Shown: in pieces, positions 18,319 through 39,025 of the stretch
Layout: the number at the start of each line of letters is the position of its first letter
Position numbering within the stretch: the stretch's first letter is position 1
NCBI GenBank assembly: GCA_958296135.2
Contig: CATQHZ020000001.1
Location: forward strand, 1,056,001-1,120,000
Length of the DNA stretch: 64,000 nt
Reading direction: 5' to 3'
From: an uncultured Poribacteria bacterium
GTDB lineage: Bacteria; Poribacteria; WGA-4E; WGA-3G
Program-made: the position numbers and the translations under genes
The notes under the pieces: generated by a model
Seen by the model: only the letters and a program-made list of their open reading frames with translations
Database searches by the model: none
What the model was told of the DNA's origin: nothing

Positions 18319-19145
18319 CTACCGTACTGTGCGCTGCGCCTTCAGATGCGCCCAGGTGGTGGTGAATTTGGCTTGCGCTTCCACACTCGTGACGACTGCG
18401 GCGTATTCGGCGAAGTCTGCTGCGTCAAAAGCGGAGCCGTAGACTTCGACTTCGTCAATCATGCCGCTGAAGTAGTGGATATCGGTGCCTTCGCCATCTT
18501 CATCGTGGAAGACAGCGTTGGCATTGACGTATCCAATGCCGGTGTCGTCGCCGTGCTGAAAGAGCTGCCCGCCCTCTTCGCTGGCAACCTTTTCTCCGTC
18601 AACCCACATCTCGAATTTGTCAGCTTCGACGGCTTCACCCGCTTCACGGATGACTAAGCCGACGTGATACCAGCGGTTTGACTCAACAGGGACAGAGGGC
18701 CAGGCTCCGTCCCAGTTATATTCGGCGCGGTTCCAGCCGCCGACGTAGAGCTGCCCTTCAAACACGTTGATGACGAGCCCGCGGGTGCGTCCGCCTTCCT
18801 CAAAAATCGTCTGTTTCTGCTCGGTGATACTGACATCTGCGCAGTTGAAATACGCGATGATTGTCCGGTCGGTGTAGGGACCGCCTGTGTTGATATCGGT
18901 GGAATCCGGGAGTTTCACCCCGTCTCCATCGCCGTCAAAAAGCAGTGCCTTTCCGACGATGCCGTCAACAACCCCCGGGTCTCCGACGAGTTCGCCGTTC
19001 ACGCCTTTTCCGGAGGAGTCTTCGCCATCACCGTTGTCAAAATCCAAATTGCTGCGACGGTTGCGTCATCTTTCGCTGCGAAGGTTGTCACGGCGGCGAA
19101 CATGAGCAACACACTTAAAACTGAAAAGAAACTCAATTTTGCCAT
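18319..19145 (-). pseudogene. Secreted LamG/concanavalin-like protein with a 1-bp frameshift after the signal peptide (pseudogene or sequence error)
   Basis: ATG 19145 gives MAKLSFF...AKDDATVAAIW. One G is missing at TGG(G)AT (~19044) relative to the neighbouring paralog (ATVAAHWDF). The rest is intact in ORF 18319-19047. Confidence 0.8.
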
Positions 19146-19262
19146 TTTGCATATCTCCTAGGGTGCTATACCAAATTCACCGCTATAGTTGGGAAGTGCC
19201 CAATTCTAAACAGAACCCGATTTGGTATTGGTTAATTGAAAAAAGGGACCTCATCGTTTTGC

Positions 19263-19398
19263 GAGTCGAGACCCCGGAGGATGTCAAGACGCGGGAGGGC
19301 TCTCCTACAAGGGGTCGAGACGCGGGAGAGCTCTCCTACGGGAGGATGTCGAGACGCGGGAGGGCTCTCCTACTGCAAGAGAGGGCTCTCCTACTGCA
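19263..19398. repeat. REP array (CGAGACGCGGGAGGGCTCTCCTAC)
   Basis: Four or five tandem copies. Confidence 0.8.
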
Positions 19399-19411
19399 AG
19401 ATAAGATACCT

Positions 19412-20230
19412 CTAATTTTCTGTGCGTTGGGCTTTTAAATGGGCCCACGTTGTTGTGAATTTCGCCTGTGGTTCGACGCTGAGCGGTTGCGCGAGTTTTG
19501 CGAAGTCCGCTGCGTCAAACGCGGAACCGTAGACGAGCACTTCGTCAATCAACCCGCCGAACCAGTCGATGTCACTGCCGCCGCCGGCATCATCATGGTA
19601 GACAGCATTCTGGTTGGTATGCCCGATGCCGATATCATCGGCGTGAGCGTGGAGTTGCCCGCCTTTTTCCTGAGCGATGCGTTTTCCATCCAGCCACATT
19701 TCAAACTTTTTGCTTTCTACCTTTCCGGCTGCGTCGCGTATGACCAGGCCGACGTGGTACCACTGCTTGGATTTGACATCGGCTGAGGGCCAGGCGCCGT
19801 TCCAGTTATATTCGGCGCGATTCCAGCCGCCGACGTAAACTTTTCCGCCATGCACATAGATGACGAGGCCGCGCGTCCGCCCGCCTTCTTCGTAGATGAC
19901 TTGCTTCCGGTCTTTCACGCCGACATCATCGCAGTAGAACAACGCTGCAACTGTCCGGTCGGTGTAAGGGCCGCCGGAATTAATATCCGCCGAATCCGGT
20001 AATTTGATTCCGTCACTTTTGCCGTTAAACTTCAACGCTTTCCCGGCGATACCGTCGACAGCCTGCGGTTTCCCTGCAAAGTTGCCATCGACTCCCTTTT
20101 TGGAACTATCTTTGGCACTGCCATCGTTGAAGTCCCAGTGGGCGGCGACGGTGGCATCATCGCGCTGTGCAGTCACTGTCACAATGGGCAACAGCGCGAG
20201 ACAGAGTATCACAATAAAAAAGCGAATCAC
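19412..20230 (-). CDS. Secreted LamG-like jellyroll protein, close paralog of 18319-19145
   Basis: GTG start with AGGAGG RBS, signal peptide, WDFND, WYHVGLV, FGGLIDEV, C-terminal VEPQAKFTTTWAHLK. Confidence 0.88.
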   Translation of the reverse strand: MIRFFIVILCLALLPIVTVTAQRDDATVAAHWDFNDGSAKDSSKKGVDGNFAGKPQAVDGIAGKALKFNGKSDGIKLPDSADINSGGPYTDRTVAALFYCDDVGVKDRKQVIYEEGGRTRGLVIYVHGGKVYVGGWNRAEYNWNGAWPSADVKSKQWYHVGLVIRDAAGKVESKKFEMWLDGKRIAQEKGGQLHAHADDIGIGHTNQNAVYHDDAGGGSDIDWFGGLIDEVLVYGSAFDAADFAKLAQPLSVEPQAKFTTTWAHLKAQRTEN

Positions 20231-20497
20231 TGTTATGCCTCCTTTTCTATCAGTTGGGGCGGTTAAAATTTTTGAGAGAAACGTCACAGGTTTCCTCAAG
20301 TTAGAATATGTGTTTCAATTATGGCACATTTGCCAAATTTTGTCAAATTAAAAAATGGAAAAAAATTGGTGCATGGACATTTTTCTTGCCAAAAACCTAC
20401 TTTTAGGGTATCATAACGGCATGTAGAAACCTATGCCGGTGTTGTTCTGAAACAGAGCTGCACTGTTGTTTCAACGCGAAAACGAATGAGGTGCAAT

Positions 20498-21259
20498 ATG
20501 AGACACAAATCGAGACTGATACTGGCCTTAGCCCTCGCCGTTAGCCTTTGGACTACTGGCGCGTTTGCGGCGGAGCTTACCGAAGGACTTGTCGGATACT
20601 GGCCGCTTGATGGGAACGGAAACGACGAATCCGGCAGTGGACACGATGCCGAGCTTGAGAAAGGCGCGAAATGGGTAGACGATGGATGGGTGAACGGGGC
20701 AGTTGAAGTCGATGGCGGGGGCGGACACATCGTTGTTGACAATAAGTTTGAGCTCACTACGGATACGCTTACCGTCATCGCTAGAATCAACGGATGGAAG
20801 ACGATCGACTGGTCTGGGATTGTCGTCGGGCGCAGCGGGACCCCCTTCTGGATGGGTGTCGCGGCCAATAACACTTTGACTTACGTCTGGAATAACAACG
20901 CCGCGGAGACATGGGGTTGGAAAGAGGCATCCGAAATCCCTGAGGATAAATGGGCACTCGTTGCCATCGCAATCGCGCCCGATAAAGCGACGAGTTACGT
21001 TTATCATAGGGCTACCGGCAAACTTGATGCTGCGGATAACGACATCACTCATATTGAGCAAACGGTAATCAACCTGAAATTCGGATGGGACGAATGCTGC
21101 GGAGCCAGATATTTCAAAGGGATTATTGACGAAGTGATGGTATACGACCGGGCGTTAAACGCCGCCGACATTGAGAGACTCGCCACTGTCGGGTTGGCTG
21201 TGGATAGCAACGGCAAACTGACGACGACTTGGGCGGCGATTAAGGGGAAAACAAGGTGA
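20498..21259 (+). CDS. Secreted LamG-like jellyroll protein
   Basis: Signal peptide, GLVGYWPLDG, FKGIIDEVMVYDRAL, C-terminal KLTTTWAAIK. Confidence 0.88.
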   Translation: MRHKSRLILALALAVSLWTTGAFAAELTEGLVGYWPLDGNGNDESGSGHDAELEKGAKWVDDGWVNGAVEVDGGGGHIVVDNKFELTTDTLTVIARINGWKTIDWSGIVVGRSGTPFWMGVAANNTLTYVWNNNAAETWGWKEASEIPEDKWALVAIAIAPDKATSYVYHRATGKLDAADNDITHIEQTVINLKFGWDECCGARYFKGIIDEVMVYDRALNAADIERLATVGLAVDSNGKLTTTWAAIKGKTR

Positions 21260-22779
21260 AGTTAAACGCAGAGCACACTGAACTCTTCATTGATGACGCG
21301 CGTCTCGCCGACAAGCACGGCGTGACGCGCACACTGCATCCGGGAGTCAAACATGATGTCCCTGTCCTAGAGCCTACCCCCGGCAACCTCTGGGAACACG
21401 GCGGGCCAGACCAGTCTAAGCGCGTTCATGTCTACGGAACCGTCATGTTTGATGAGGCATTCGGGAAGTATCGGATGTGGTATATGTGCCGCATGGGGCC
21501 GCATTGGCGGTTTCAGGCAAACCAGATTCCGGGGCTCTATGTGCCACGCCCAGCCCGGCATCCGTCGACGTTCAATGGACAGACGCACGATGCCTACGGC
21601 CGGAAGTTCGTTGAGAATGACCGCGGTGATCTCACTTGCTACGCGGAGAGTGACGATGGACTGACGTGGACGAAGCCGAACCTCGGCATTTTTGAATTCA
21701 ACGGCGATTCAAATAACAACATTGTCTGGGACCTGCACGGTGCGTCCGTTTTCCGTGATGATGATGAACCGAACCCAGAGAAACGGTATAAGGCAATTGG
21801 GTTTTGCAGGCGGTATCGCAACGTCTTCCTCATCACGTCTCCGGATGGCATTCGATGGGACGATGCAGACTCCCTTGAACCGGTTGCGCAGCGGGATAAC
21901 GAAGGGTGCTTCAACGTCGTCTATGACGAGAAAGCCTCTCTCTTTCGTGCTTATGCGCTGACGCGGGGCACAGACAAGGATGCGCGGCGGATGATTGCCT
22001 ACACCGAGAGCCCGCGGCTAGAGGGAGCATGGGCACCCCTCACGCCGATGTTCGGTGCGGCAGAGAAAGACGATGAAATCGGTGTGGAGAGATACGGCGC
22101 GAATCGCGCCGAAATCCATAACTTGTCAGGATTTCGTTACCACGACAACTACATCGGCATCGCGGGGGTGTTATATGTGACGGGACCGGGGGCACCGGAG
22201 CATGAGATTCCGGTGGATGGCCCCATTGATGCGCAACTGGTTTGCAGCCGAGATGGCGTGACGTGGGATTATCCCGATGGCGACAGAACTCCGATTCTTC
22301 CGCGCGGCGGAGAGGGAGAATTTGACATGGGGATGCTCATGGGGACTTCGACCGAACCGATTATTACCGATGATGCCATCCATTGGTATTACACCGGTGC
22401 GAAGCATACTCACGGAGCACCGATGAAAGAACGGTGCAAATCCATCGGGCGCGCCACGTGGCGATTAGATGGCTTCGTCTCTCTCGATGCCGATGAAAGC
22501 GGGGGTGTGGTGGAGACTCTCCCGTTGCGTTTGCGGGGCAATGCGTTGCAGATTAATGCGGATGCGAGCGCGGGACAAGTCGCCGTTGAAGTGCTGACGC
22601 ATGATGGCAAGGTGCAGCAAGGCTTTTCAAGGGATGCGTGTGTGCCGTTGACAGGCGATGAGATACGGCATCGCGTCCAATGGAAATCGCGAACGTTAGC
22701 GGATGCCCAGCAACCGCTGCGGCTTCGGTTTGTGCTGAACCGTGCGCGGTTGTATGCATTCCGTTCAGGAATACTCTAG
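21256..22779 (+). CDS. Hypothetical protein, probable five-bladed beta-propeller glycoside hydrolase-like
   Basis: ELFIDD, YRMWY, Asp-box-like ESDDGLTW/SPDGIRW/SRDGVTW motifs, RLDGFVSL. Confidence 0.7.
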   Translation: MKLNAEHTELFIDDARLADKHGVTRTLHPGVKHDVPVLEPTPGNLWEHGGPDQSKRVHVYGTVMFDEAFGKYRMWYMCRMGPHWRFQANQIPGLYVPRPARHPSTFNGQTHDAYGRKFVENDRGDLTCYAESDDGLTWTKPNLGIFEFNGDSNNNIVWDLHGASVFRDDDEPNPEKRYKAIGFCRRYRNVFLITSPDGIRWDDADSLEPVAQRDNEGCFNVVYDEKASLFRAYALTRGTDKDARRMIAYTESPRLEGAWAPLTPMFGAAEKDDEIGVERYGANRAEIHNLSGFRYHDNYIGIAGVLYVTGPGAPEHEIPVDGPIDAQLVCSRDGVTWDYPDGDRTPILPRGGEGEFDMGMLMGTSTEPIITDDAIHWYYTGAKHTHGAPMKERCKSIGRATWRLDGFVSLDADESGGVVETLPLRLRGNALQINADASAGQVAVEVLTHDGKVQQGFSRDACVPLTGDEIRHRVQWKSRTLADAQQPLRLRFVLNRARLYAFRSGIL

Positions 22780-24090
22780 TGACTCTGGGTAGGCGCGGTT
22801 TTCCACCGCGCCTTCGTAGTTTCTGTGTGGAATCTGATGGCGGGTTAACCTGCGATTAAAGGTTCGCAAATCTATGCCCAAAGCCGCCGCTGCATGGGTG
22901 CGATTGTCATGATACCGTGCTAACGTATTGAGAATGCACGCCTTCTCAAACGCAGCCAATGCTACCTCCAACTTTGTCTTGAGCGGGAATTTCACAACGA
23001 ACGTCTTGTCTGTTTTCGGGGCTTCTTCGGGCACTTCTTCCTGCGGCTCTCGTTGTCCCTGAAGTTCTGCCGGGAGATGCCTCGGTAAAATGGGGCCGCG
23101 TTCCGCGTTGACAATGGCGGTGATCATAGCGTTTTTCAATTGCCGTATATTCCGTGGCCACGCGTAGGTTTTGAGTAACGCAAGTGCAGCTGCACTGAGT
23201 TCGCCGAGCGGAAGTTGGTGGCTCCGGCTTTCTTTTTCCAAAAAGTGTTGCGCCAACGCCGGGATATCTCCTGGCCGCTCTCGCAAAGGCGGTACAGAGA
23301 TAGTCAGCGTTTTGAGGCGTTCATAAAGGTCTGCACGAAACTGCTTCTCTTGAACTTCTCTCGGCAGTTCTCGGTTGGTAGCGGCGATGACTCGGACGTT
23401 CACCGAGATATCTTCTGTCCCGCCGATTCGGTGGAAACAGCCTGTCTCAATGACGCGTAGGAAATTCGGCTGGGCCTGAAGAGGAATTTCCCCGATTTCA
23501 TCAAGGAAAAGGGTGCCGCCATCTGCCTGTTCAAAGTAGCCGATGTGCTGCTGATGCGCGTCGGTAAACGCGCCTTTCTCATGCCCGAAAAGGGCACTCC
23601 CTATCAAGTTTGGCTCGATGGCACCACAATCCATGACAACCAACTTTTCCTTCCGCCTATCGCTCTGGTTGTGCAACGCTTGTGCTGCCAGTTCCTTCCC
23701 CACCCCGGTCTCACCCAAGATCAGGACTGAGTAAGGGAGCGGAGCGAAATTCTCAATGTCCTTGAACATCGCTAAAACTTGCCGATTCTCGCCGACAATA
23801 CCGGGGTAAGTCCCCTTCAAATCGGCGCGGGTCCGAGGTGTGTCGGGCCGCGGGGTTGACAAAGTGCGGTTGTCCGGCTGCTCTACTGCTTGAACTGCTA
23901 CAACCGTCGTCTCTGGGACTGCCGCCGAGATTTGCTGAAACGCATCGCTGTCTTCGGGTTCCGATGCTGCCGGTGATAATTCGTAACCGTGCAGTTCAAG
24001 GATGTTGCGGACTTCGTTTGCGGTAGCCTCATCCGCCACGATAAAGACGTGGGAGGGAGTCTTGCCGATCGCTTTTCGTTGCTGTGTCAT
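22765..24090 (-). CDS. Sigma-54-dependent transcriptional activator (bEBP, AAA+ plus Fis HTH) with a degenerate N-terminal domain
   Basis: GETGVGKE, LFGHEKGAFTDA, GTLFLDEIGE, RVIAATNR, WPRNIRQL, AAAALGI HTH. Confidence 0.93.
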   Translation of the reverse strand: MTQQRKAIGKTPSHVFIVADEATANEVRNILELHGYELSPAASEPEDSDAFQQISAAVPETTVVAVQAVEQPDNRTLSTPRPDTPRTRADLKGTYPGIVGENRQVLAMFKDIENFAPLPYSVLILGETGVGKELAAQALHNQSDRRKEKLVVMDCGAIEPNLIGSALFGHEKGAFTDAHQQHIGYFEQADGGTLFLDEIGEIPLQAQPNFLRVIETGCFHRIGGTEDISVNVRVIAATNRELPREVQEKQFRADLYERLKTLTISVPPLRERPGDIPALAQHFLEKESRSHQLPLGELSAAALALLKTYAWPRNIRQLKNAMITAIVNAERGPILPRHLPAELQGQREPQEEVPEEAPKTDKTFVVKFPLKTKLEVALAAFEKACILNTLARYHDNRTHAAAALGIDLRTFNRRLTRHQIPHRNYEGAVENRAYPESLEYS

Positions 24091-24253
24091 CGATTTATCC
24101 CTCTGGTTGCATTGTAGGTATCCGCTGGTGTTTCGGCCAACGGGCGGATTGTTTGGGACATATTCGCTACGATACGCATAGCCTATCACATTTTTGAAAA
24201 GCTGTCAAGAAACATATACGCGCTAATGTGGCGACTTTGGCCTCCTCTCTATG

Positions 24254-24379: not shown

Positions 24380-24658
24380 CTATTGCGTTTCAGTGGGGAC
24401 ATCTTGTTTGTCCCGCTGCCGGCGTTCACGCGCCTCTTGGATGCGCTTTCGGATCCGTTCCTTCCGCTCTGCACAACACCCACAGGATTTCTCTTTTACA
24501 GCGGAGGGAGGTGTCTTAGTAGGCACAACTGTCTCCGCGGATGGGTGTTGCTTAGGCACACGCGGCGGGAGTCTATCTGTGGCGTAAGCGATAAACGCCG
24601 CGAGAATCGCTAGAAGAACGAGGACGGCAATGCCGTATGCAAAACCGGTATTTTTCAT
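24380..24658 (-). CDS. Small membrane-anchored protein with a CGCC motif and basic coiled coil
   Basis: N-terminal TM helix, KSCGCCAERKERIRKRIQEARERR. Its start directly abuts the upstream stop. Confidence 0.75.
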   Translation of the reverse strand: MKNTGFAYGIAVLVLLAILAAFIAYATDRLPPRVPKQHPSAETVVPTKTPPSAVKEKSCGCCAERKERIRKRIQEARERRQRDKQDVPTETQ

Positions 24659-25663
24659 TTACTTTTTCTCCTGTTGTTTCCGAAGGAACCGTGTGACATG
24701 TTCAGCGACCTCCGGATCTAACGCTTTCAGACGACGGAGCCCTTCTTCAGGGCCATAGCGATTCAAGGTTTGCATAGCACGGTTGAACCGCTCTGGTGAA
24801 AAACTTCCACGCAGGAACGTTTCAAGACTTTCTTCGGTAGATGACTCAGACGTGAGTGCTCCTTCAATGTCAACCTCACTTTCTGTGAAGGTGTCGTCTT
24901 CGCCTTCTATGGTGGAAGCAAAATCGTCAAAAGCGGGAGACGCTACACTTTGAACTGGTTCCCCATCAATTCGGGGTTCCGTGGGGTACTGATCGGTTTC
25001 CGTGTTAACGAATTCGTCTTCCGCGGGAATAGGAGGCTCTGGGGTATCCGAAAAATCTGGCTCTTCCGCGGCGGGAGGTATCGGATTTTGAAGCACATCC
25101 ATAGCCCACCGCCCAATTGCGAAATAGTCGCCTTCAAAATGTTCCATTGCCCATACGATATTTGGCTCTTCCACCAAAAACTCAACTATCACATCTCTAA
25201 CACTTTCAGAGGCAGCATCTGTGCCAAACTGAATGTTCCTTTCCCAAAAAAGCGTGGATAATTTCTCACGCATTTTTGGCTCAAGTGCATCGGCAGAATC
25301 TTGTGGGAAATGTTCCTGAAACATCTCATGAAATTCTGCGAGAAATTCATTGTAACGAAGTTTAACACCTTGTGAGGCGAAGAAATCCAAAATATCCTTT
25401 ACACTGTTCGGATCCGTTGTTAAAAAATCCTGATACGCCTGGCTTTTGAACACCTTCTCCAGTCTTTGGTTTTCTGCCTCGGTGAACGCGCGCTTGCTCA
25501 GAAAACCTCGTACCCACTGCCCTGAGCCCTGCTGTGCTTGTGTTTGCACTGTAGAACTACGAGATGTGACCGATTTTCGGCGTTGGAGTCCCCAAAAAAC
25601 ACCAACGCCAACAACCGCGAGTATCAGCGCGACACTCAGAATACGGTTTAACTTTTCAGTCAT
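24659..25663 (-). CDS. Hypothetical membrane-anchored protein
   Basis: AGGAGG RBS before ATG 25663, single N-terminal TM helix, acidic/Pro-rich linker, C-terminal YGPEEGLRRLKALDPEVA. Confidence 0.82.
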   Translation of the reverse strand: MTEKLNRILSVALILAVVGVGVFWGLQRRKSVTSRSSTVQTQAQQGSGQWVRGFLSKRAFTEAENQRLEKVFKSQAYQDFLTTDPNSVKDILDFFASQGVKLRYNEFLAEFHEMFQEHFPQDSADALEPKMREKLSTLFWERNIQFGTDAASESVRDVIVEFLVEEPNIVWAMEHFEGDYFAIGRWAMDVLQNPIPPAAEEPDFSDTPEPPIPAEDEFVNTETDQYPTEPRIDGEPVQSVASPAFDDFASTIEGEDDTFTESEVDIEGALTSESSTEESLETFLRGSFSPERFNRAMQTLNRYGPEEGLRRLKALDPEVAEHVTRFLRKQQEKK

Positions 25664-25689
25664 AATACCTCCTGAGCTTTCCATTCTTG

Positions 25690-26466
25690 TCAAGGTTTCC
25701 TTTTCTCGTCTACCCATCTCAAGAATAAGTCGGGATTGGACAAATTCTGCAGGAGTTCTCCGATAAGCGCGGGATTGCCGATGGCACTCCATAACAGCCC
25801 TTCATCTACACCATGTTCTTCAAACTGTTCATGGAGCCACTGCGCGTCCATCTTTTCCGTTTGAACAACGAAGGGTTCAAAAACACCGGCAAATTGTCCT
25901 GCTTTCAGTTGATGACGCTCGAGAAATCCTTTTACTAGCGGCCCAATGAAAATCTTGAATTTTTTGTCGAAAATCTCCCAGACATCTTCTGCGGCGATAT
26001 CCTCACGGTAAAGGATAAAATTCGCCTCCCGGGATGCAACCGTCATCTGATGAACGGTTGTTATATCTTCGTCCGTAGGGATACCGATCCAGTTTTTCAA
26101 AAAAGGGAGATATCTCTCCGCATCCGGTGGTGCCACCTCAAGATACTCGTCAAATGTCTGGAAGGGCTCTTCTAGTGGAGATTCCTGTGTCAGAAAATCC
26201 AAATAGGGCTGAGAACGCGTCACTTCTCGGAGAGTTTTAAGATCATCGTCTAAAATGGCGTTCGGAAACATACGCTGCAACTTCACGAAGATGTCTTCCA
26301 CCCCTGTGGGCTCGGTGGCTATCGGCTGCGGGCCGACTGCCTCAACCTGTGCCGTTGTCTCTTTACCAATCGCTTCAGTGATGTCGGGTGGCGTGTCTAC
26401 ACACCCAAGCAATTGGAAACCGAGTGCGAAAAGTATAAATACAATGAAACGTAGGAAGTTTTGCAA
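25690..26466 (-). CDS. Hypothetical lipoprotein
   Basis: TTG start with GAGGA RBS, hydrophobic signal ending in the lipobox LLGC. Confidence 0.8.
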   Translation of the reverse strand: MQNFLRFIVFILFALGFQLLGCVDTPPDITEAIGKETTAQVEAVGPQPIATEPTGVEDIFVKLQRMFPNAILDDDLKTLREVTRSQPYLDFLTQESPLEEPFQTFDEYLEVAPPDAERYLPFLKNWIGIPTDEDITTVHQMTVASREANFILYREDIAAEDVWEIFDKKFKIFIGPLVKGFLERHQLKAGQFAGVFEPFVVQTEKMDAQWLHEQFEEHGVDEGLLWSAIGNPALIGELLQNLSNPDLFLRWVDEKRKP

Positions 26467-26492: not shown

Positions 26493-26530
26493 GTGGTGGT
26501 GAAATTTAAAATCGATAAAATCACCACCAC
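26493..26530 (-). other. Intercistronic hairpin after the peptide gene
   Basis: GTGGTGGTGA...TCACCACCAC perfect 10-bp stem with an AT-rich loop. Confidence 0.55.
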
Positions 26531-26558: not shown

Positions 26559-26786
26559 TCAGTTACAGACACCATCCGCCCAATTGCAAATCGCTTCTGC
26601 AATATCCTCTGCGAAATCACACCAAGCAGGTCTGGATAGACAGACATAACTTGCGACAATGTTTGCCACATCACATGCAAGTTGTGCATCATTACATTCA
26701 TCGGCATCCGCCAGTTGCGGAACAAGCATGACTGCAAATGCGATGATAGTTACCAGTGCAAGGCTTTTTACCACTATTGCTTTCAT
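26559..26786 (-). CDS. Small secreted six-cysteine acidic peptide precursor
   Basis: Strong RBS AAGGAGG, 28-aa Sec signal ending A-D-A, 47-aa mature part with 6 Cys. Confidence 0.8.
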   Translation of the reverse strand: MKAIVVKSLALVTIIAFAVMLVPQLADADECNDAQLACDVANIVASYVCLSRPAWCDFAEDIAEAICNWADGVCN

Positions 26787-26799
26787 CGGTTTTTCCTCC

Positions 26800-27293
26800 T
26801 TCTGTCGCCCACTCCGTTAAGAGAAAGTCGGAATTATAAAACGAGAATCACCACCAGCGACATTGAGCAAAATTCCCGGCAGCGTTCAAGCTGCTCAGCG
26901 GAACGGGAGTCGCTGGTGCGTTCCAATTGTTGCGCGCCACATCATGCATGTCTCACGTGCCATCGGCGCAGGAGTAGCAAATTTTGCGAATGTCTCTCAA
27001 TATTCGCAAAGGCGAAACCGGTAAAGGAAAAATCAATGACATGCCGGCAGCTGACGTTCCCGTTAGCACACCCGGAAACGGTGCCCGGTTTCCTCCGAAC
27101 GGTGTGTCTTGCTCGTCTTCGTTGTGGTGCTGACGTGATTCATCGGTGAATCGACTCCGCCCGTTGGCGAATCCTCGGTGTCAGCCGCAAGAACACTTCG
27201 GCAGGAGCGGCACAGCTCCCAACATCGCTTCTTGACTGTTCCCTACCCGATACGCCGGAAAACGTTCCGACTCGGTTGAGAACGCCTCAACCT
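26800..27293 (-). ncRNA. Candidate structured 5' leader or ncRNA
   Basis: No credible minus-strand ORF between the sigma-54 promoter and the peptide gene. At least seven clear stems found by eye. Confidence 0.45.
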
Positions 27294-27303
27294 ATAAACA
27301 TAG

Positions 27304-27320
27304 TTGCAAGAACCGTGCCA
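27304..27320 (-). promoter_or_regulatory. Consensus sigma-54 (-24/-12) promoter
   Basis: Minus strand reads TGGCACGGTTCTTGCAA, matching TGGCAC-N5-TTGC. Confidence 0.85.
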
Positions 27321-27448
27321 ACTCGAACATCGGCACTTTAAACGTCCCTTTCGGGTATTTTTCACGGGATTTTCTAAAAACGCCGCGTTTTTCGGCGATG
27401 TTGCTGGCATTGTGCATTTTTCGGCGATGTTATCCCGCCATTCAACAA

Positions 27449-27505
27449 TGTCAAATATGTCATACACTGCCAAAGTTGTCATACCTCTCTGTGCCAAAGT
27501 TGTCA
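27449..27505. promoter_or_regulatory. Putative upstream activator (enhancer) boxes
   Basis: TGTCAAATATGTCA (27449), TGCCAAAGTTGTCA (27468) and TGCCAAAGTTGTCA (27492), about 155-210 bp upstream of the predicted start site. Confidence 0.6.
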
Positions 27506-27874
27506 CACTTGCGGAGATGTCTTAAAGTTGCGTGGCGAATTCGTCAAGCATTTGGCGGATGTGCTCTTCGTTTCCATCAATGAAGGGGGAGCTAAGAACG
27601 TTGTCTCGCTTTCCGCCGCTTCTTGACTTCTCGCAGTGTCTGCACTGGAAGTCTCTGCGGTAGTATCTTCGCTTATGAGCGTTCCTGCCGAGGTTTCCGA
27701 TACATCGTCCCGCTCAGCCTGAGAGGAATTGGTATCCTTTTGCGGCTGTGGAGCCACGGTCTGAGGAACCTGAGGGAGGCTTCTCTCGAAGCGTTCTTTC
27801 TCATGCTCTAAGAATAGCACCCAAATCGTGCCTAGAACAACGAGAAGGGCTCCGATAAAAACGAGTTGTTTCAT
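27503..27874 (-). CDS. Membrane-anchored hypothetical protein, probably 3'-truncated
   Basis: AAGGAG RBS, TM helix plus LEHEKERFERSLPQVP motif. The ORF runs out of frame through the duplicated segment 27522-27595. Confidence 0.65.
   Translation of the reverse strand: MKQLVFIGALLVVLGTIWVLFLEHEKERFERSLPQVPQTVAPQPQKDTNSSQAERDDVSETSAGTLISEDTTAETSSADTARSQEAAESETTFLAPPSLMETKSTSAKCLTNSPRNFKTSPQV
27522..27595 (-). repeat. Diverged direct repeat of the 3' end (28966-29040) of the zinc-ribbon gene
   Basis: 34-bp identical core TTGCGTGGCGAATTCGTCAAGCATTTGGCGGATG at 27528-27561 and 28972-29005. Confidence 0.88.
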
Positions 27875-28127: not shown

Positions 28128-28781
28128 CTACTCTTCTTCGTCAGCGAACTCTGATACACTAAACCCAACCTCGTAGTCCAAGTGAGTGATACCAGAGGCC
28201 TTCATCGTCCTGAGCATTTCCAACATTTGCCGCCTTCGCTGAGGATAGAGGTAAAAGAGTGCCTCTTCGCCAGCAATATGTTCGTCAATCGTCATTCGCT
28301 CGTTTTTGAAAAGTTTTCGCTGGTACTCGGATGCAACATAAACTTGCGGCATATCACCAAACATTTCGAGATACGCATTTTGCATCGCATCGGCTCGCTC
28401 GTCTGGAGATAATTCTAAATTTGGCGTTCTGTCCACCGCACTCTCCCGTTGTTGCCACGGATCTGCCGGCCTGGCGCGCGGGAGTGAATCATCACCCCTC
28501 GTGATGTCCTCGTTCTCTTGGAGAGGGTTGTCACTGTTCGCTTGAACCGAATCCTGCTCCACGGCAGATGAGACTTCGCCAGTGTCGGTTCCAGTTTCGC
28601 CGGCGTTGGTTCCGGTCTGAAGCGGCGGCGAATCCGCTGTGGTGGCATTGTTCACACGCGGATTCACCGGCTCGGGTGGTTGCGGCAGACTTTGAATAAA
28701 AGCCTTTTTATCATGCTCTAGGTAAAGTATCCAGCCCGCTATGCCAACTATTATTAATATGAAAATCGCGATTTTTCGCAT
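28128..28781 (-). CDS. Membrane-anchored hypothetical protein (paralog family of 27874 and 57214)
   Basis: AAGGAGG RBS, TM helix plus LEHDKKAFIQSLPQPP. Confidence 0.8.
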   Translation of the reverse strand: MRKIAIFILIIVGIAGWILYLEHDKKAFIQSLPQPPEPVNPRVNNATTADSPPLQTGTNAGETGTDTGEVSSAVEQDSVQANSDNPLQENEDITRGDDSLPRARPADPWQQRESAVDRTPNLELSPDERADAMQNAYLEMFGDMPQVYVASEYQRKLFKNERMTIDEHIAGEEALFYLYPQRRRQMLEMLRTMKASGITHLDYEVGFSVSEFADEEE

Positions 28782-28965
28782 TGGACGATGCCTCCTTTTG
28801 CAAAAAAGACTCTGCAGAACAAATTCTGATTGCGGGAAGCGACTGGGTATAGGGATTCCGTTTGCAGGGACCCTATATCCAATCTGTTTAATGGTAAATG
28901 TAGTAGCCTCATCCTTCGCTAAAGATGTGATACGGAGCCTTGCTAATTCCCTCTTACACCTGGTC

Positions 28966-29919
28966 TCATGTTTGCGTGGCGAATTCGTCAAGCATTTGGC
29001 GGATGCTTGCCTCATTTCCGTCAAGGAAGAGGGGAGCTAACGCGCCGCGGCCGTGCAATGCTTGCAGGAGAGAGTCGATCTGCATCATGCGTTCCTGCGG
29101 CGTGCGGCATTTGGGCCATTTGTCAGCGAATTCGCGCGCCGGTTGGGGGTTGCCGGTTCTCAAGGAGCGTGCGCTTTTGCGCCACGCCTGCCAGGTGAAA
29201 GTATGTCTGCACGCCGTGCACTGCAGTTTTTCGTCGCGTTTTTTGAGGCTTTTGCGGTAGGCTCGCCAGCGGCGTTTGTAGCCGCACGCGGTGCAGTGGA
29301 TATGTCCCTTCGTGTGCAGTGCGACTTCGTTGCATTTTGGGCAGTATAGTTCATCTATTTCTCCGGTACGCGCGCTTTTCAAGAGTGCTTCTTTTGCCCT
29401 ATGAGTCACGGCGGCCTCCGGTCTGCGGATGACGTGAAGGCAGTGTGGGCACGGTAATCGCACGCGGGCCCGAATGGAACGGCGGTATGTGTCCCACGTC
29501 CATCTCTTTCCGCAAGTGCAGTGGAGTTCAGCGTGTACGCGAGATGCGCGATGAGAAAGCGCGCCTCCCTCAGCGAGGTTCGTACCGCAATCAAAGCACC
29601 GTGGCGTTTTGCGCAGCGCGTCCCGGCAGTCCTGCCAGAGCAGCCGCTTGGCACAATGCGGGCAGTGAAACCAATTGACGTGCAGGCTGCCGGTGCTTTT
29701 CCGAAAGCGCGCGTTGATGCGTCGTTGGACTTTGGTACGGCACTGCGGGCACGGCACGCGTCCTTCTGGGAACACATCGGCTACCGTCGCAATGTCGGCA
29801 CAGCGCGCGTGGAGTTCCCATCCCACAACCTGCAGCGCGTCGTCATCGTAGATGCCTAACCGTGCGGCGCGGTAGAGCCGGCGGATTTTGATAGGTTTTA
29901 CACGAGGTGCCCATGTCAT
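28966..29919 (-). CDS. Basic multi-zinc-ribbon hypothetical protein
   Basis: CPQC, CPHC, CFDC, CTC, CPHC, CPKC, CTAC, CTAC. Start overlaps the stop of the upstream gene. Confidence 0.8.
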   Translation of the reverse strand: MTWAPRVKPIKIRRLYRAARLGIYDDDALQVVGWELHARCADIATVADVFPEGRVPCPQCRTKVQRRINARFRKSTGSLHVNWFHCPHCAKRLLWQDCRDALRKTPRCFDCGTNLAEGGALSHRASRVHAELHCTCGKRWTWDTYRRSIRARVRLPCPHCLHVIRRPEAAVTHRAKEALLKSARTGEIDELYCPKCNEVALHTKGHIHCTACGYKRRWRAYRKSLKKRDEKLQCTACRHTFTWQAWRKSARSLRTGNPQPAREFADKWPKCRTPQERMMQIDSLLQALHGRGALAPLFLDGNEASIRQMLDEFATQT

Positions 29920-37357: not shown

Positions 37358-39025
37358 TTACTTTTTTGGCCGATTCGCTTTCTGATCTTCCACAATTTCT
37401 GCTAAAGTTTGGCGGAAAGCCTCATGTTGCGGCGACATTTTAATCGCCGCATGAATTGCCTTGAATGCTTGTTGATGTTCACCGGCTTGAGCATATGCCA
37501 ACGCGAGCGTCTGTAAATATTGCGGTGCTGGTGCCAAACGGAACGCTTTTTGGGCAAAGGCGATGGCCTCTTGTATCTGGACTTTCTCCTGAATATAGAG
37601 CCTTGCCAGTCCGTTGAGCGCGTAGTGCGCTGCTGCATCTAGCGTTAACGCCGCCTGATACGCCGAGATTGCTGCGTCACTCTCGCCGCGGCGGTGGTGG
37701 ATAGCGGCAATGCCGGCCTGCGCTGTCGCTAACGAAGCGTCAAGCGCGAGAGCCGTCTGGTATTCAGCGAACGCCTTATCCAACTGTGCTTGTAGATAGT
37801 AGACTGCGGCTAAACCGGCGTGCGGCGCGGCGTGAGTTGGCGCGAGCGCGATTGCCTCAAGATAGGCGGTTTCGGCTTCTTGAAATCTGCGTTCGCGAAA
37901 GAACAGTTTTCCGAGTTTGTAGAACGCGGCGGCGCGGTAATCTTTAGCGGGGGCCGATGTCCCGCCTCCTGCGGCATGGAGCCTTATCGTTTCCCGATAC
38001 GCCGCAATCGCCTTATCGAATTTCCCATATTTTTCGTAGGTTATCGCTAGTTGATACTGCTTTTGCGGATTGCTGGGTTCATTGAGGGTTGCGCGCTCAC
38101 GCGTGTCGATTTCTTGCGCGATGGCGTTTAATCGGCGGTAGGTTTCCATTGCGCGTTTTCCCTGTTCCACCTGCTTCAGTCGGAATAGGGCTTGCGCGAG
38201 GTTGTAGTAGGCACCGACATGTTCTGCTTGTTGCGCGATGACGATGCGGTATGCCTCGGCGGCGCGCTGAAATTCGCGCTTCTTTGTGAGGATTAAGCCG
38301 AGTCTGTAACGGGCGGCAGTGAAATCGGGATTGAGCCGGATTGCGTTCTCCAACAGCGGTTGTGCCTTGTCCAATTCCCCTTGTTGCTGATAGATGGCAC
38401 CCAAGTTGCCGTTCGCCATCGGGAGTTCGGGCTGCAAAGTTAACGCCGCTTTGTAATAGCGAATTGCTTCCTCTTGCCTGTCTACCGCTTCATAACATGA
38501 GGCGAGGTTCGTCAGCGCCGCCGCTAACTTCGGGGAACGGCGGAGGCACTCGTGATACGCCTCGAGCGCATCTGAAAACCGGTCTGCCTGCTGATAGGCA
38601 GCTGCCAGGCCAAGCCGTACCTGCAGTGCATCCGGGTGCTGTCGGATGAGTTTCTGGTAGAGCCGGATAGCGTTATCCACACGTTCGGTTTTTGTATAGA
38701 GGCGCGCGAGATTCGCCGCCGCTTGTAGGTGCTGGCTCTCTATCTTCAGTGCCTGTTTCAGTGCCGCTTCTGCCTTAACAAACTCGCCGATTTGTAAGTG
38801 AACTGTGCCGAGGGCGGCGTGCGCCTTGGCGGAGCCTGCGTCTAGTGCTATTGCCTGCTGAAAATGGTGAAGTGCCTGCGCGTATTGGCCTCGGCGGGCT
38901 GCTTGCGTGCCGCGCGTGTAAAAATCTTCTGGAGATTGCGCGGTTGCGTTCCCCAAAATGAGCCAGAGAAAAATGGCGATTTTTGTCTTTCGCAAAGCGT
39001 TTGATAACATTTTCTGTGCAATCAT
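37358..39025 (-). CDS. Secreted multi-TPR protein
   Basis: Signal-like N-terminus and more than ten TPR motifs. Confidence 0.9.
   Translation of the reverse strand: MIAQKMLSNALRKTKIAIFLWLILGNATAQSPEDFYTRGTQAARRGQYAQALHHFQQAIALDAGSAKAHAALGTVHLQIGEFVKAEAALKQALKIESQHLQAAANLARLYTKTERVDNAIRLYQKLIRQHPDALQVRLGLAAAYQQADRFSDALEAYHECLRRSPKLAAALTNLASCYEAVDRQEEAIRYYKAALTLQPELPMANGNLGAIYQQQGELDKAQPLLENAIRLNPDFTAARYRLGLILTKKREFQRAAEAYRIVIAQQAEHVGAYYNLAQALFRLKQVEQGKRAMETYRRLNAIAQEIDTRERATLNEPSNPQKQYQLAITYEKYGKFDKAIAAYRETIRLHAAGGGTSAPAKDYRAAAFYKLGKLFFRERRFQEAETAYLEAIALAPTHAAPHAGLAAVYYLQAQLDKAFAEYQTALALDASLATAQAGIAAIHHRRGESDAAISAYQAALTLDAAAHYALNGLARLYIQEKVQIQEAIAFAQKAFRLAPAPQYLQTLALAYAQAGEHQQAFKAIHAAIKMSPQHEAFRQTLAEIVEDQKANRPKK

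Follow-up and report, generated by a model that had tools for sequence, protein, structure and literature searches.

The window, a 64,000-nucleotide stretch of contig CATQHZ020000001.1, encodes at positions 26559–26786 a small six-cysteine peptide. It belongs, as a divergent member, to a family that had not been described before and is restricted to a single phylum, apparently Poribacteria. It is very likely that the open reading frame (ORF) specifies a real exported product belonging to this lineage-restricted family. Structure prediction makes it likely that the mature peptide is a two-helix antiparallel hairpin, and there is good reason to think that a sigma-54-controlled operon carries its gene as the over-produced first product. 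As to function, we favour a competition or surface peptide acting outward, a role which, like the high expression, is inferred. The composite picture, a stapled hairpin made by a sigma-54 operon and acting outward as a competition peptide, is offered as plausible rather than probable.

The peptide ORF lies on the minus strand, as do all features described here between 22765 and 29024 of the window. It starts with ATG, specifies 75 residues and is preceded by a Shine–Dalgarno sequence, AGGAGG, 8 nt 5′ of the ATG (26795–26800). The N-terminus of the precursor has lysines at positions 2 and 7, followed by a hydrophobic core of 15 residues and by P-Q-L-A-D-A, and is predicted to be a Sec-type signal cleaved after A-D-A. 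The resulting 28-residue signal peptide, MKAIVVKSLALVTIIAFAVMLVPQLADA, occupies 26703–26786, and its closing A-x-A motif shows a conservation of 90% or more when 103 family sequences are aligned. The mature peptide of 47 residues (26562–26702) has two predicted helices and six Cys residues, at positions 3, 10, 21, 28, 39 and 46 (spacing 6-10-6-10-6), with nine acidic residues and one basic residue. The preliminary description of this locus had given the same A-D-A site (itself a prediction), the same 47-residue sequence and the same Cys positions and charge count, all of which were reproduced exactly. It had also placed all of the Cys residues on one helix face, which our calculation bears out: at 100° per residue, the directions of the three Cys residues in each helix have a resultant of 0.99. 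The Cys face also holds alanines or small residues (A17 in the first helix, A35 and A42 in the second). The opposite face is hydrophobic (L8, V12, I15, V16 and Y19; F30, I34 and W41) and the flanks are acidic.

Among 5.8 billion proteins, a word-indexed search picked out a pair of 75-residue homologues, each 83% identical to the peptide and with all six Cys residues. A search of genome contigs with the single protein gave no more than a spurious match of 16 residues in an Actinomadura contig. Using phmmer against 1.84 billion representatives (E ≤ 0.001) gave eight matches, seven of them small proteins with a signal peptide (six with the six-Cys pattern and one with four Cys residues); the eighth, a repeat protein of 807 residues, was set aside as unrelated. 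Divergent further copies turned up in six-frame searches of related genomes, and a profile built from 16 sequences collected 105 protein clusters. The framework C-x6-C-x10-C-x(6, 7, 8 or 10)-C-x10-C-x6-C is present in 104 of 109 short sequences and in the peptide genes at 49 genomic loci; the exact 6-10-6-10-6 spacing of the window peptide was found in four other sequences. The preliminary description had proposed a search for such a Cys pattern, and its retention in 104 of the 109 relatives means that the ORF did not arise by chance. Among the five exceptions, P0010 lacks both the first and the last Cys, another three have a truncation or a frameshift, and P0109 has the signal peptide alone in common with the others. 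The genomic copies add x9 loops, one 6-10-9-10-5 variant, two members with eight Cys residues (one extra pair) and one copy with five, in which Cys2 is absent and Cys5 is displaced. That the ORF is a chance reading frame or a non-functional remnant, as its very short length and lack of a known family might suggest, has a negligible probability given that it follows a strong ribosome-binding site and has over 100 homologues in which the Cys framework is invariant, and given also the purifying selection acting on it and its conserved place at the head of an operon.

We define the family here by a Sec-type signal ending in A-x-A followed by C-x6-C-x10-C-x(6–10)-C-x10-C-x6-C in a mature part of 45–60 residues and, as a second criterion, by the position of the gene directly upstream of genes of two further families, c2 and c5, on the same strand. 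The window peptide shows both, in the gene order peptide, c7, c2, c5, c4; these neighbours are described individually below. Profile matches (103 sequences) were obtained in 46 of the 176 genomes of the phylum and in four of its 31 genera: 38 of 65 genomes in g5, five of 20 in g15, one of two in g4 and, in g1, one of two plus the genome of the window itself; none was obtained among the 40 genomes of g2. The phylum name rests on two members whose source is given as ‘Candidatus Poribacteria bacterium’; Poribacteria are sponge-associated. A protein query detected no paralogue of the peptide in the window's own genome. Net charge across the family ranges from −10 to +2 (median −2), so the acidity noted in the preliminary description is not family-wide. 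Full-text literature searches listed no paper on such a family.

Profile matches to the family can arise from the signal segment alone. P0109, a protein of 136 residues encoded on a 5.68 Mb contig, joins the signal MKTIIVKSIALLLILTFGLILLPQQAEA of one peptide clade to an unrelated, Cys-free mature part, and the signal segment thus seems to be common to different exported proteins. At locus L064 (G150:C2:2672600-2686900) there are two peptides with eight Cys residues, the extra ones lying beside Cys2 and in the C-terminal tail. The Pfam family DUF6520 (PF20130) matches some g5 relatives weakly (E values of 1.9 × 10⁻⁵ to 0.03), with P0021 exactly at the gathering cut-off of 25.4 bits. None of the 176 genomes has a match over that cut-off, and several of the matches span the signal peptide only. 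The window peptide gave no match to DUF6520 at E ≤ 1, nor was it matched in a search of its own genome at E ≤ 10, and membership was rejected on the score.

AlphaFold2, run with the 103-sequence alignment, places helices at residues 30–51 and 53–74 of the precursor (2–23 and 25–46 of the mature peptide). The predicted local distance difference test score (pLDDT) is 87–92 over the mature part; the overall mean is 76.5 and the predicted template modelling score 0.54. The helix breaks at R24 of S-R-P, where the preliminary description had put the turn of a helical hairpin, and the model thus backs that proposal. The arms of the peptide are mirror-symmetric (6, 10 and 10, 6), length variation within the family is almost wholly confined to the central loop (x6, 7, 8, 9 or 10), and Cys residues are lost or gained pairwise, as in the absence of both Cys1 and Cys6 from P0010 and in the extra residues that come as a pair. 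Together, these features argue for a hairpin with fixed register and nested pairing. The Sec-exported pre-peptide would then be cleaved at A-D-A to release a product that folds into the antiparallel hairpin, with a helix–helix seam formed by the six invariant Cys residues and Ala and most likely locked by nested bonds. Three such disulfides, 3–46, 10–39 and 21–28, are probable from the sequence pattern. The preliminary description had named the same three, and the spacing, the loop and the paired Cys changes are consistent with its pairing, while the bonds themselves remain predictions.

Fold searches with the peptide model returned only generic helical hairpins and bundles: Foldseek gave E values above 2 (ROP variants and ATP synthase c), and the VIA fold search, in which the signal helix was part of the query, reached a Z-score of 7.2 at best. 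Neither glycocins nor CHCH proteins were among the entries listed, an absence that excludes nothing. A sequence search of the PDB with the family profile gave nothing relevant, and the best scores in the ESM Atlas (0.76 for the peptide and 0.80 for c5) pointed to no family and were uninformative.

The paired Cys residues of glycocins are spaced C-x6-C, and the window peptide has C-x6-C at both ends, in mirror positions. Hairpin bacteriocins are its closest known analogues and glycocins the nearest of these, but the window peptide is not a member. A glycocin consists of two helices that are joined by a loop and linked by two nested disulfides; besides the precursor, its gene cluster specifies a peptidase-transporter, a glycosyltransferase and a pair of thiol-disulfide oxidoreductases (PMC12457901). 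Sublancin 168, glycocin F and thermoglycocin, from Firmicutes, resemble the window peptide in length (∼37–50 residues), in having two antiparallel helices with an inter-helix loop and nested disulfides (fold and bonds being predicted here) and in the clustering of the structural gene with accessory genes. They differ in that the glycocin leader is cut by a C39 peptidase-ABC transporter of the SunT type, whereas here there is a Sec signal with A-x-A; in that the third disulfide of three-disulfide glycocins forms a C-terminal loop, whereas three nested rungs (x6, x10) are predicted here; and in that the host here belongs to a diderm phylum, with sigma-54 as the probable regulator of the operon. 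The peptide operon contains no ABC transporter or peptidase and no thiol-disulfide oxidoreductase pair (BdbAB/GccCD), and no glycosyltransferase domain that could represent an S/O-glycosyltransferase of the SunS/GccA type was found in the window genes scanned. The preliminary description had stated that no modifying enzyme is adjacent, which holds for the window in Pfam and NCBIfam scans; it had left out the conserved operon, the sigma-54 control and the closer analogy to hairpin bacteriocins.

A second comparison is with gallocin A, a class IIb bacteriocin (GllA1/GllA2) whose peptides were modelled as helical hairpins and whose disulfide, confirmed experimentally, is needed for activity (PMC10100652). 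These peptides are long and carry few positive charges, and their operon also encodes a small immunity peptide. It differs in having one disulfide rather than the predicted three, in being a two-peptide system with a GG leader and ABC export, and in having a thioredoxin-like helper in its locus and Gram-positive hosts. No solved chain matched the peptide in sequence, and no similarity in sequence to either kind of bacteriocin was detected.

Helix–turn–helix folds with parallel disulfide rungs, their Cys residues on one face of each helix, are also known from twin CX9C (CHCH) and twin CX3C proteins, plant α-hairpinins and scorpion CS-α/α toxins. These have two rungs spaced by x9 or x3, are eukaryotic and are unrelated in sequence and biology; none of them appeared in the fold or sequence searches with the peptide. 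Membership of the twin CX9C/CHCH group was rejected on the x6 and x10 spacings and the lack of a Pfam CHCH match. CpxP, Spy and ZraP are periplasmic helical stress proteins with LTXXQ-type motifs; this family was likewise rejected, with no Pfam or NCBIfam match to the peptide. The Csp copper storage proteins are four-helix bundles of ∼120 residues with a Cys-lined core, whereas the peptide has two predicted helices in 47 residues and gave no profile match.

A sigma-54 (−24/−12) promoter, TGGCACGGTTCTTGC, lies at 27306–27320 with no mismatches to the consensus TGGCAC-N5-TTGC. Of 50 peptide genes, 32 have an element with at least nine of the ten consensus bases (GG and GC fixed) in the preceding 1 kb and in the same orientation; the background was 49 of 2000 random 400 nt windows from the same loci. 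In the window, the element follows just after a terminator-like hairpin with a T-run (27397–27381), which is likely to be the end of the transcript of the upstream gene and is overlapped by two 18 nt direct repeats (family D2, 27381–27431). Three further direct repeats of 17 nt, similar to GTATGACAACTTTGGCA (family D1, 27449–27508, 82–100% identity), are found 130–190 nt upstream of the promoter. From their placement, these are candidate binding sites (upstream activator sequences) for the operon's own sigma-54 activator. Arrays of three or four repeats with a different motif occupy the equivalent place in relatives, and common 8-mers were found at 15–17 of 32 loci. The last gene of the operon, c4, encodes the presumed activator of the 27306–27320 promoter. 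As the sigma-54 element and the repeats are accompanied by an activator gene at the end of the operon, we infer an activator-dependent, possibly self-reinforcing unit. A leader of ∼0.5 kb (26787–27305) separates the promoter from the gene; it has no convincing ORF, but does have a TATAAT-like box ∼50 nt before the ATG. A scan for sigma-70 promoters found no minus-strand site near the peptide gene, and Rfam matched nothing in the leader and intergenic regions. A second perfect TGGCAC-N5-TTGC is present elsewhere in the window, at 38395–38409 on the plus strand.

Just after the stop codon of the peptide gene there is an intercistronic stem-loop (26493–26530) with a GC-rich stem of 10 bp and no U-tract. 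Its minimum free energy (MFE) is −27.3 kcal mol⁻¹ (z-score −3.06), and none of 200 shuffled sequences was as stable. A comparable hairpin (z < −2, using mononucleotide shuffles) follows 43 of the 50 peptide genes with a median MFE of −27.7 kcal mol⁻¹, although the stem sequences are unrelated. The stem-loop is probably a partial terminator or an mRNA stabiliser that raises peptide output over that of the downstream genes. Where a hairpin follows the leading gene of an operon, the product of that gene is usually made in greater amount than those of the other genes, as is established for pilin and bacteriocin structural genes; because of this, the peptide can be seen as the ‘product’ and the downstream proteins as accessories. 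The sigma-54 promoter and the upstream repeats would thus drive an operon in which the peptide gene is promoter-proximal and is set apart by the stem-loop from c7, c2, c5 and c4.

We compared the rates of non-synonymous (dN) and synonymous (dS) substitution by the Nei–Gojobori method over 109 pooled genome pairs of moderate divergence (c2 dS of 0.03–1). The signal peptide has a pooled dN/dS ratio of 0.11, against 0.27 at the non-Cys positions of the mature part and 0.23 in c2, where dS rests on ∼44 codons per pair and the pairs, being related, are not independent samples. The low ratio indicates that the signal peptide evolves slowly under purifying selection; pooled dN is 0.05 for the signal and 0.18 for the mature part. 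In the closest pairs both dN and dS of the mature part are far above those of the flanking genes. Median nucleotide identities over 18 close pairs are 92.4% for the signal, 83.8% for the mature part, 91.2% for c2 and 87.5% for the upstream noncoding DNA. The mature codons fall below both the signal and c2 in 16 of these pairs and are the lowest of the four segments in 11. In two large clades the loop (…S-x-N-A-E-R-C) is invariant and the positions on the helix surface are highly variable. The scaffold of Cys, Ala and signal peptide is constant, and the helix surfaces change more quickly than the coding DNA on either side, a combination suggesting that the peptide probably meets a changing partner outside its own operon. 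Since the operon neighbours lack the dip in identity of the peptide gene, the driver of its variation is probably not a co-evolving operon protein. We looked into a diversity-generating retroelement as the source of variation and dismissed it, since the genome holds no second copy of the mature region that could act as template and the scans of neighbouring genes showed no reverse transcriptase.

In the explanation that we favour, the peptide would be an abundant, very stable competition peptide acting outward, by analogy with glycocins and gallocin A, and c7, c2 and c5 would serve in handling, anchoring or self-protection. We prefer this because the scaffold is like that of hairpin bacteriocins, because the structural gene is accompanied by a hairpin and by small membrane proteins, and because the distribution is patchy, the surface is variable and the window variant has an exposed hydrophobic stripe. 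As the argument is one of analogy, this role taken by itself is only tentatively assigned and may well be wrong. It is unlikely, though worth keeping in sight, that the stapled hairpin instead faces a host or phages as part of the cell surface or coat, from which it might also be shed, and is perhaps held by the lipoprotein c7 or the anchored c2, with host recognition molecules or phage receptor-binding proteins selecting against common variants. Such a role would account for raised divergence that is confined to the mature codons (with dN and dS above those of the neighbours in the closest pairs) and for neighbours that do not co-vary, and it fits the high abundance suggested by the hairpin after the gene and the limitation to one symbiont phylum, for which sponge association is on record. 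There is, however, no known anchoring motif, dN/dS is below 1, and most genomes have a single copy, which gives no scope for phase or antigenic switching.

The preliminary description had loosely compared the peptide, by way of analogy only, with small acidic disulfide-rich pheromones. A pheromone would be sensed as a hairpin by c2 or c5 with feedback through the sigma-54 activator, its surface defining ‘pherotypes’; the operon does have its own activator and an activator-dependent promoter before the peptide gene, a variable mature part behind a conserved leader, and a module that duplicates as a unit. Nevertheless, no sensor kinase or known receptor domain was found, the invariant part of the peptide is the loop rather than the surface, and c2 and c5 remain 86–96% identical in DNA where the peptide falls to 72–82%, so pheromone specificity would be unmatched on the receptor side. 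With neither a receptor kinase nor neighbours that diverge together with the peptide, the analogy is unsupported, and we consider a pheromone very improbable.

Several observations weigh against the competition peptide and against the stapled, sigma-54-driven product on which it builds. The promoter is unusually distant from the ATG (534 nt), and the closest genomic relative, G007, has no sigma-54 element within 1 kb upstream. Positive selection on the mature part was not demonstrated, the pooled ratio of 0.27 being below 1, and two of the 18 close pairs do not show greater divergence in the mature part than in the other segments. The absence of the dip from the operon neighbours is unlike typical toxin–immunity pairs. 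None of the glycocin accessory genes is present. Most bacteriocins are cationic, whereas the window peptide is acidic. In a diderm cell Sec export reaches only the periplasm and no route across the outer membrane is evident; as Sec alone does not cross that membrane, the peptide may stay periplasmic. Finally, profiles for DsbA (DSBA), Thioredoxin_4, DsbB and VKOR had no match in the genome of the window (94.7% complete), although the controls were matched, and no disulfide-making enzyme could therefore be identified. DSBA was matched in 94 of the 176 genomes of the phylum, but in none of the three of genus g1.

The last two points bear on a further possibility, which we judge improbable: that the six Cys residues stay reduced in the periplasm, where they would bind a soft metal [Cu(I), Zn, Cd, Hg or As] or buffer redox stress, with the sigma-54 activator inducing the peptide under envelope or metal stress. 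The ZraP/ZraR-type circuit is a broad parallel. The missing canonical disulfide-forming enzymes, a Cys face arranged pairwise across the two predicted helices, a CxCC motif in the co-conserved c5, control by sigma-54 and its enhancer-binding protein, and the fact that Sec export alone delivers the peptide to the periplasm would all suit thiol or metal handling. It sits less well with the conservation of Cys and Ala only, with no His, Met or Asp ligands, and with the lack of a Pfam match to CpxP/Spy/ZraP-like or copper-storage families. It also leaves the locally raised synonymous and non-synonymous divergence unexplained, and the even number of Cys residues and loop-only length changes fit disulfides at least equally well. 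How three disulfides are made, or avoided, in a genome with no detectable DsbA, DsbB or VKOR is thus a puzzle in its own right.

In the taxonomic family to which the window's genome belongs, most DSBA matches are partial (profile positions ∼105–180) and lie inside ORFs of 600–700 residues (∼620), present in several copies per genome; some are a few kilobases from the peptide locus, as at G062:C1:1846496-1846672. Full-length DsbA-like genes are mostly found in family f3.

Disulfide-stapled helical hairpins are compact, very stable scaffolds, most of whose known examples are bacteriocins of Gram-positive bacteria or, in eukaryotes, toxins and proteins of mitochondria. The present family would extend the hairpin scaffold to a candidate phylum of uncultivated animal symbionts, add to it a new three-rung Cys framework, Sec export and sigma-54 control, and bring with it a dedicated set of wholly uncharacterised envelope proteins. 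With about 100 natural surface variants on one rigid frame, it should be useful for peptide engineering and for asking what the symbionts of early animals secrete. Extending the competition peptide further, one may picture a three-disulfide hairpin that is the Sec- and periplasm-based counterpart of glycocin-type bacteriocins among diderm symbionts, over-produced under a sigma-54 promoter, maturing in most relatives beside a periplasm-facing, STT3-like GT-C glycosyltransferase of the same operon, and kept as many long-lived surface ‘types’ for strain-level competition or recognition in the sponge microbiome, with c2, c5 and c7 as new handling and self-protection machinery; this extended picture is speculative, and we think it quite unlikely to hold in full.

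The conservation of the neighbourhood was assessed at 49 loci holding 50 peptide genes. Downstream of these genes and on the same strand, c2 was found at 45, c3 at 33, c5 at 32, c4 at 30 and c7 at 18 and in the window; the gene calls were longest-ORF picks, a procedure that passed over c7 of the window itself and may have overlooked short c5 genes in places. The peptide–c2–c5 module occurs in three tandem copies in one genome (L064), and its triplication as a unit suggests that the three work together. In the window, c7 (25690–26466) is a lipoprotein-like protein of 258 residues with an LLGC lipobox and no known family. It has a domain of ∼77 columns in common with c2 (hhalign probability of 89%, E = 2 × 10⁻⁶). 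The c2 protein (24659–25792) is N-terminally anchored and all-helical with an acidic disordered linker; its true start is likely to be M44 at 25663, which would give 334 residues. The domains modelled by AlphaFold2 at residues 100–240 and 310–377 have pLDDT values above 90, yet no clear fold match (best Z-score 6.7) or PDB sequence match was found. The protein has no Pfam domain, and its 225 relatives are all unnamed.

The gene for c5 (24380–24658) encodes a single-pass membrane protein of 92 residues with GYATD..LP and with C-x-C-C or C-x-x-C ahead of a basic helix, features that were read from an alignment of 32 homologues; Pfam and NCBIfam scans gave no family. The sigma-54 enhancer-binding protein c4 (22765–24189) has an AAA+ domain (Pfam Sigma54_activat, E = 6.6 × 10⁻⁶³) and HTH_8, and its N-terminal ∼130 residues match no recognised sensor domain.

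The c3 protein, a polytopic protein of 666 residues, matches the archaeal-type STT3 oligosaccharyltransferase model TIGR04154 with an E value of 2.2 × 10⁻¹⁴, far below the cut-off score. An STT3-like GT-C enzyme of this kind is in the peptide operon of most g5 genomes, for example at L027:6843-8843 (minus strand). The window has no such gene; the orthologue in the window's own genome (56% identity) is ∼1 Mb away (G000:C1:69284-71626), where genes for ABC transporters and the envelope surround it. We do not favour the idea that this enzyme N-glycosylates the peptide, as only one clade has conserved N-x-S/T (as E-N-E-S); on visual inspection, the window peptide lacks the sequon, as does the greater part of another clade.

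Immediately upstream of 28 of the 50 peptide genes is a fusion of ∼960 residues in which regions 2 and 4 of an extracytoplasmic function (ECF) sigma factor are combined with a propeller of the BNR/sortilin type, as at L027:10066-12939 (minus strand) in g5; a small SNase-like ORF (c8) often lies between the fusion and the peptide gene. Loci of g5 also have two tandem paralogous secreted proteins of ∼275 residues after the sigma-54 activator, for example at L027:4772-5596 and L027:3688-4536 (both minus strand), with the Cys-rich motif …GCCPSGQCLDQC.CENGG… and no Pfam family. In the window, two anchored proteins are encoded upstream of the peptide, at 27503–27874 and 28128–29024, and have a common motif after the transmembrane segment (LEHEKERFERSLPQ and LEHDKKAFIQSLPQ). 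Homologues of these proteins (c26) precede the peptide gene only in the nearest clades (three of the 50 loci). Further along, the window contains three consecutive Laminin_G_3 (concanavalin-like) paralogues at 18319–21259, two of which are 67% identical.

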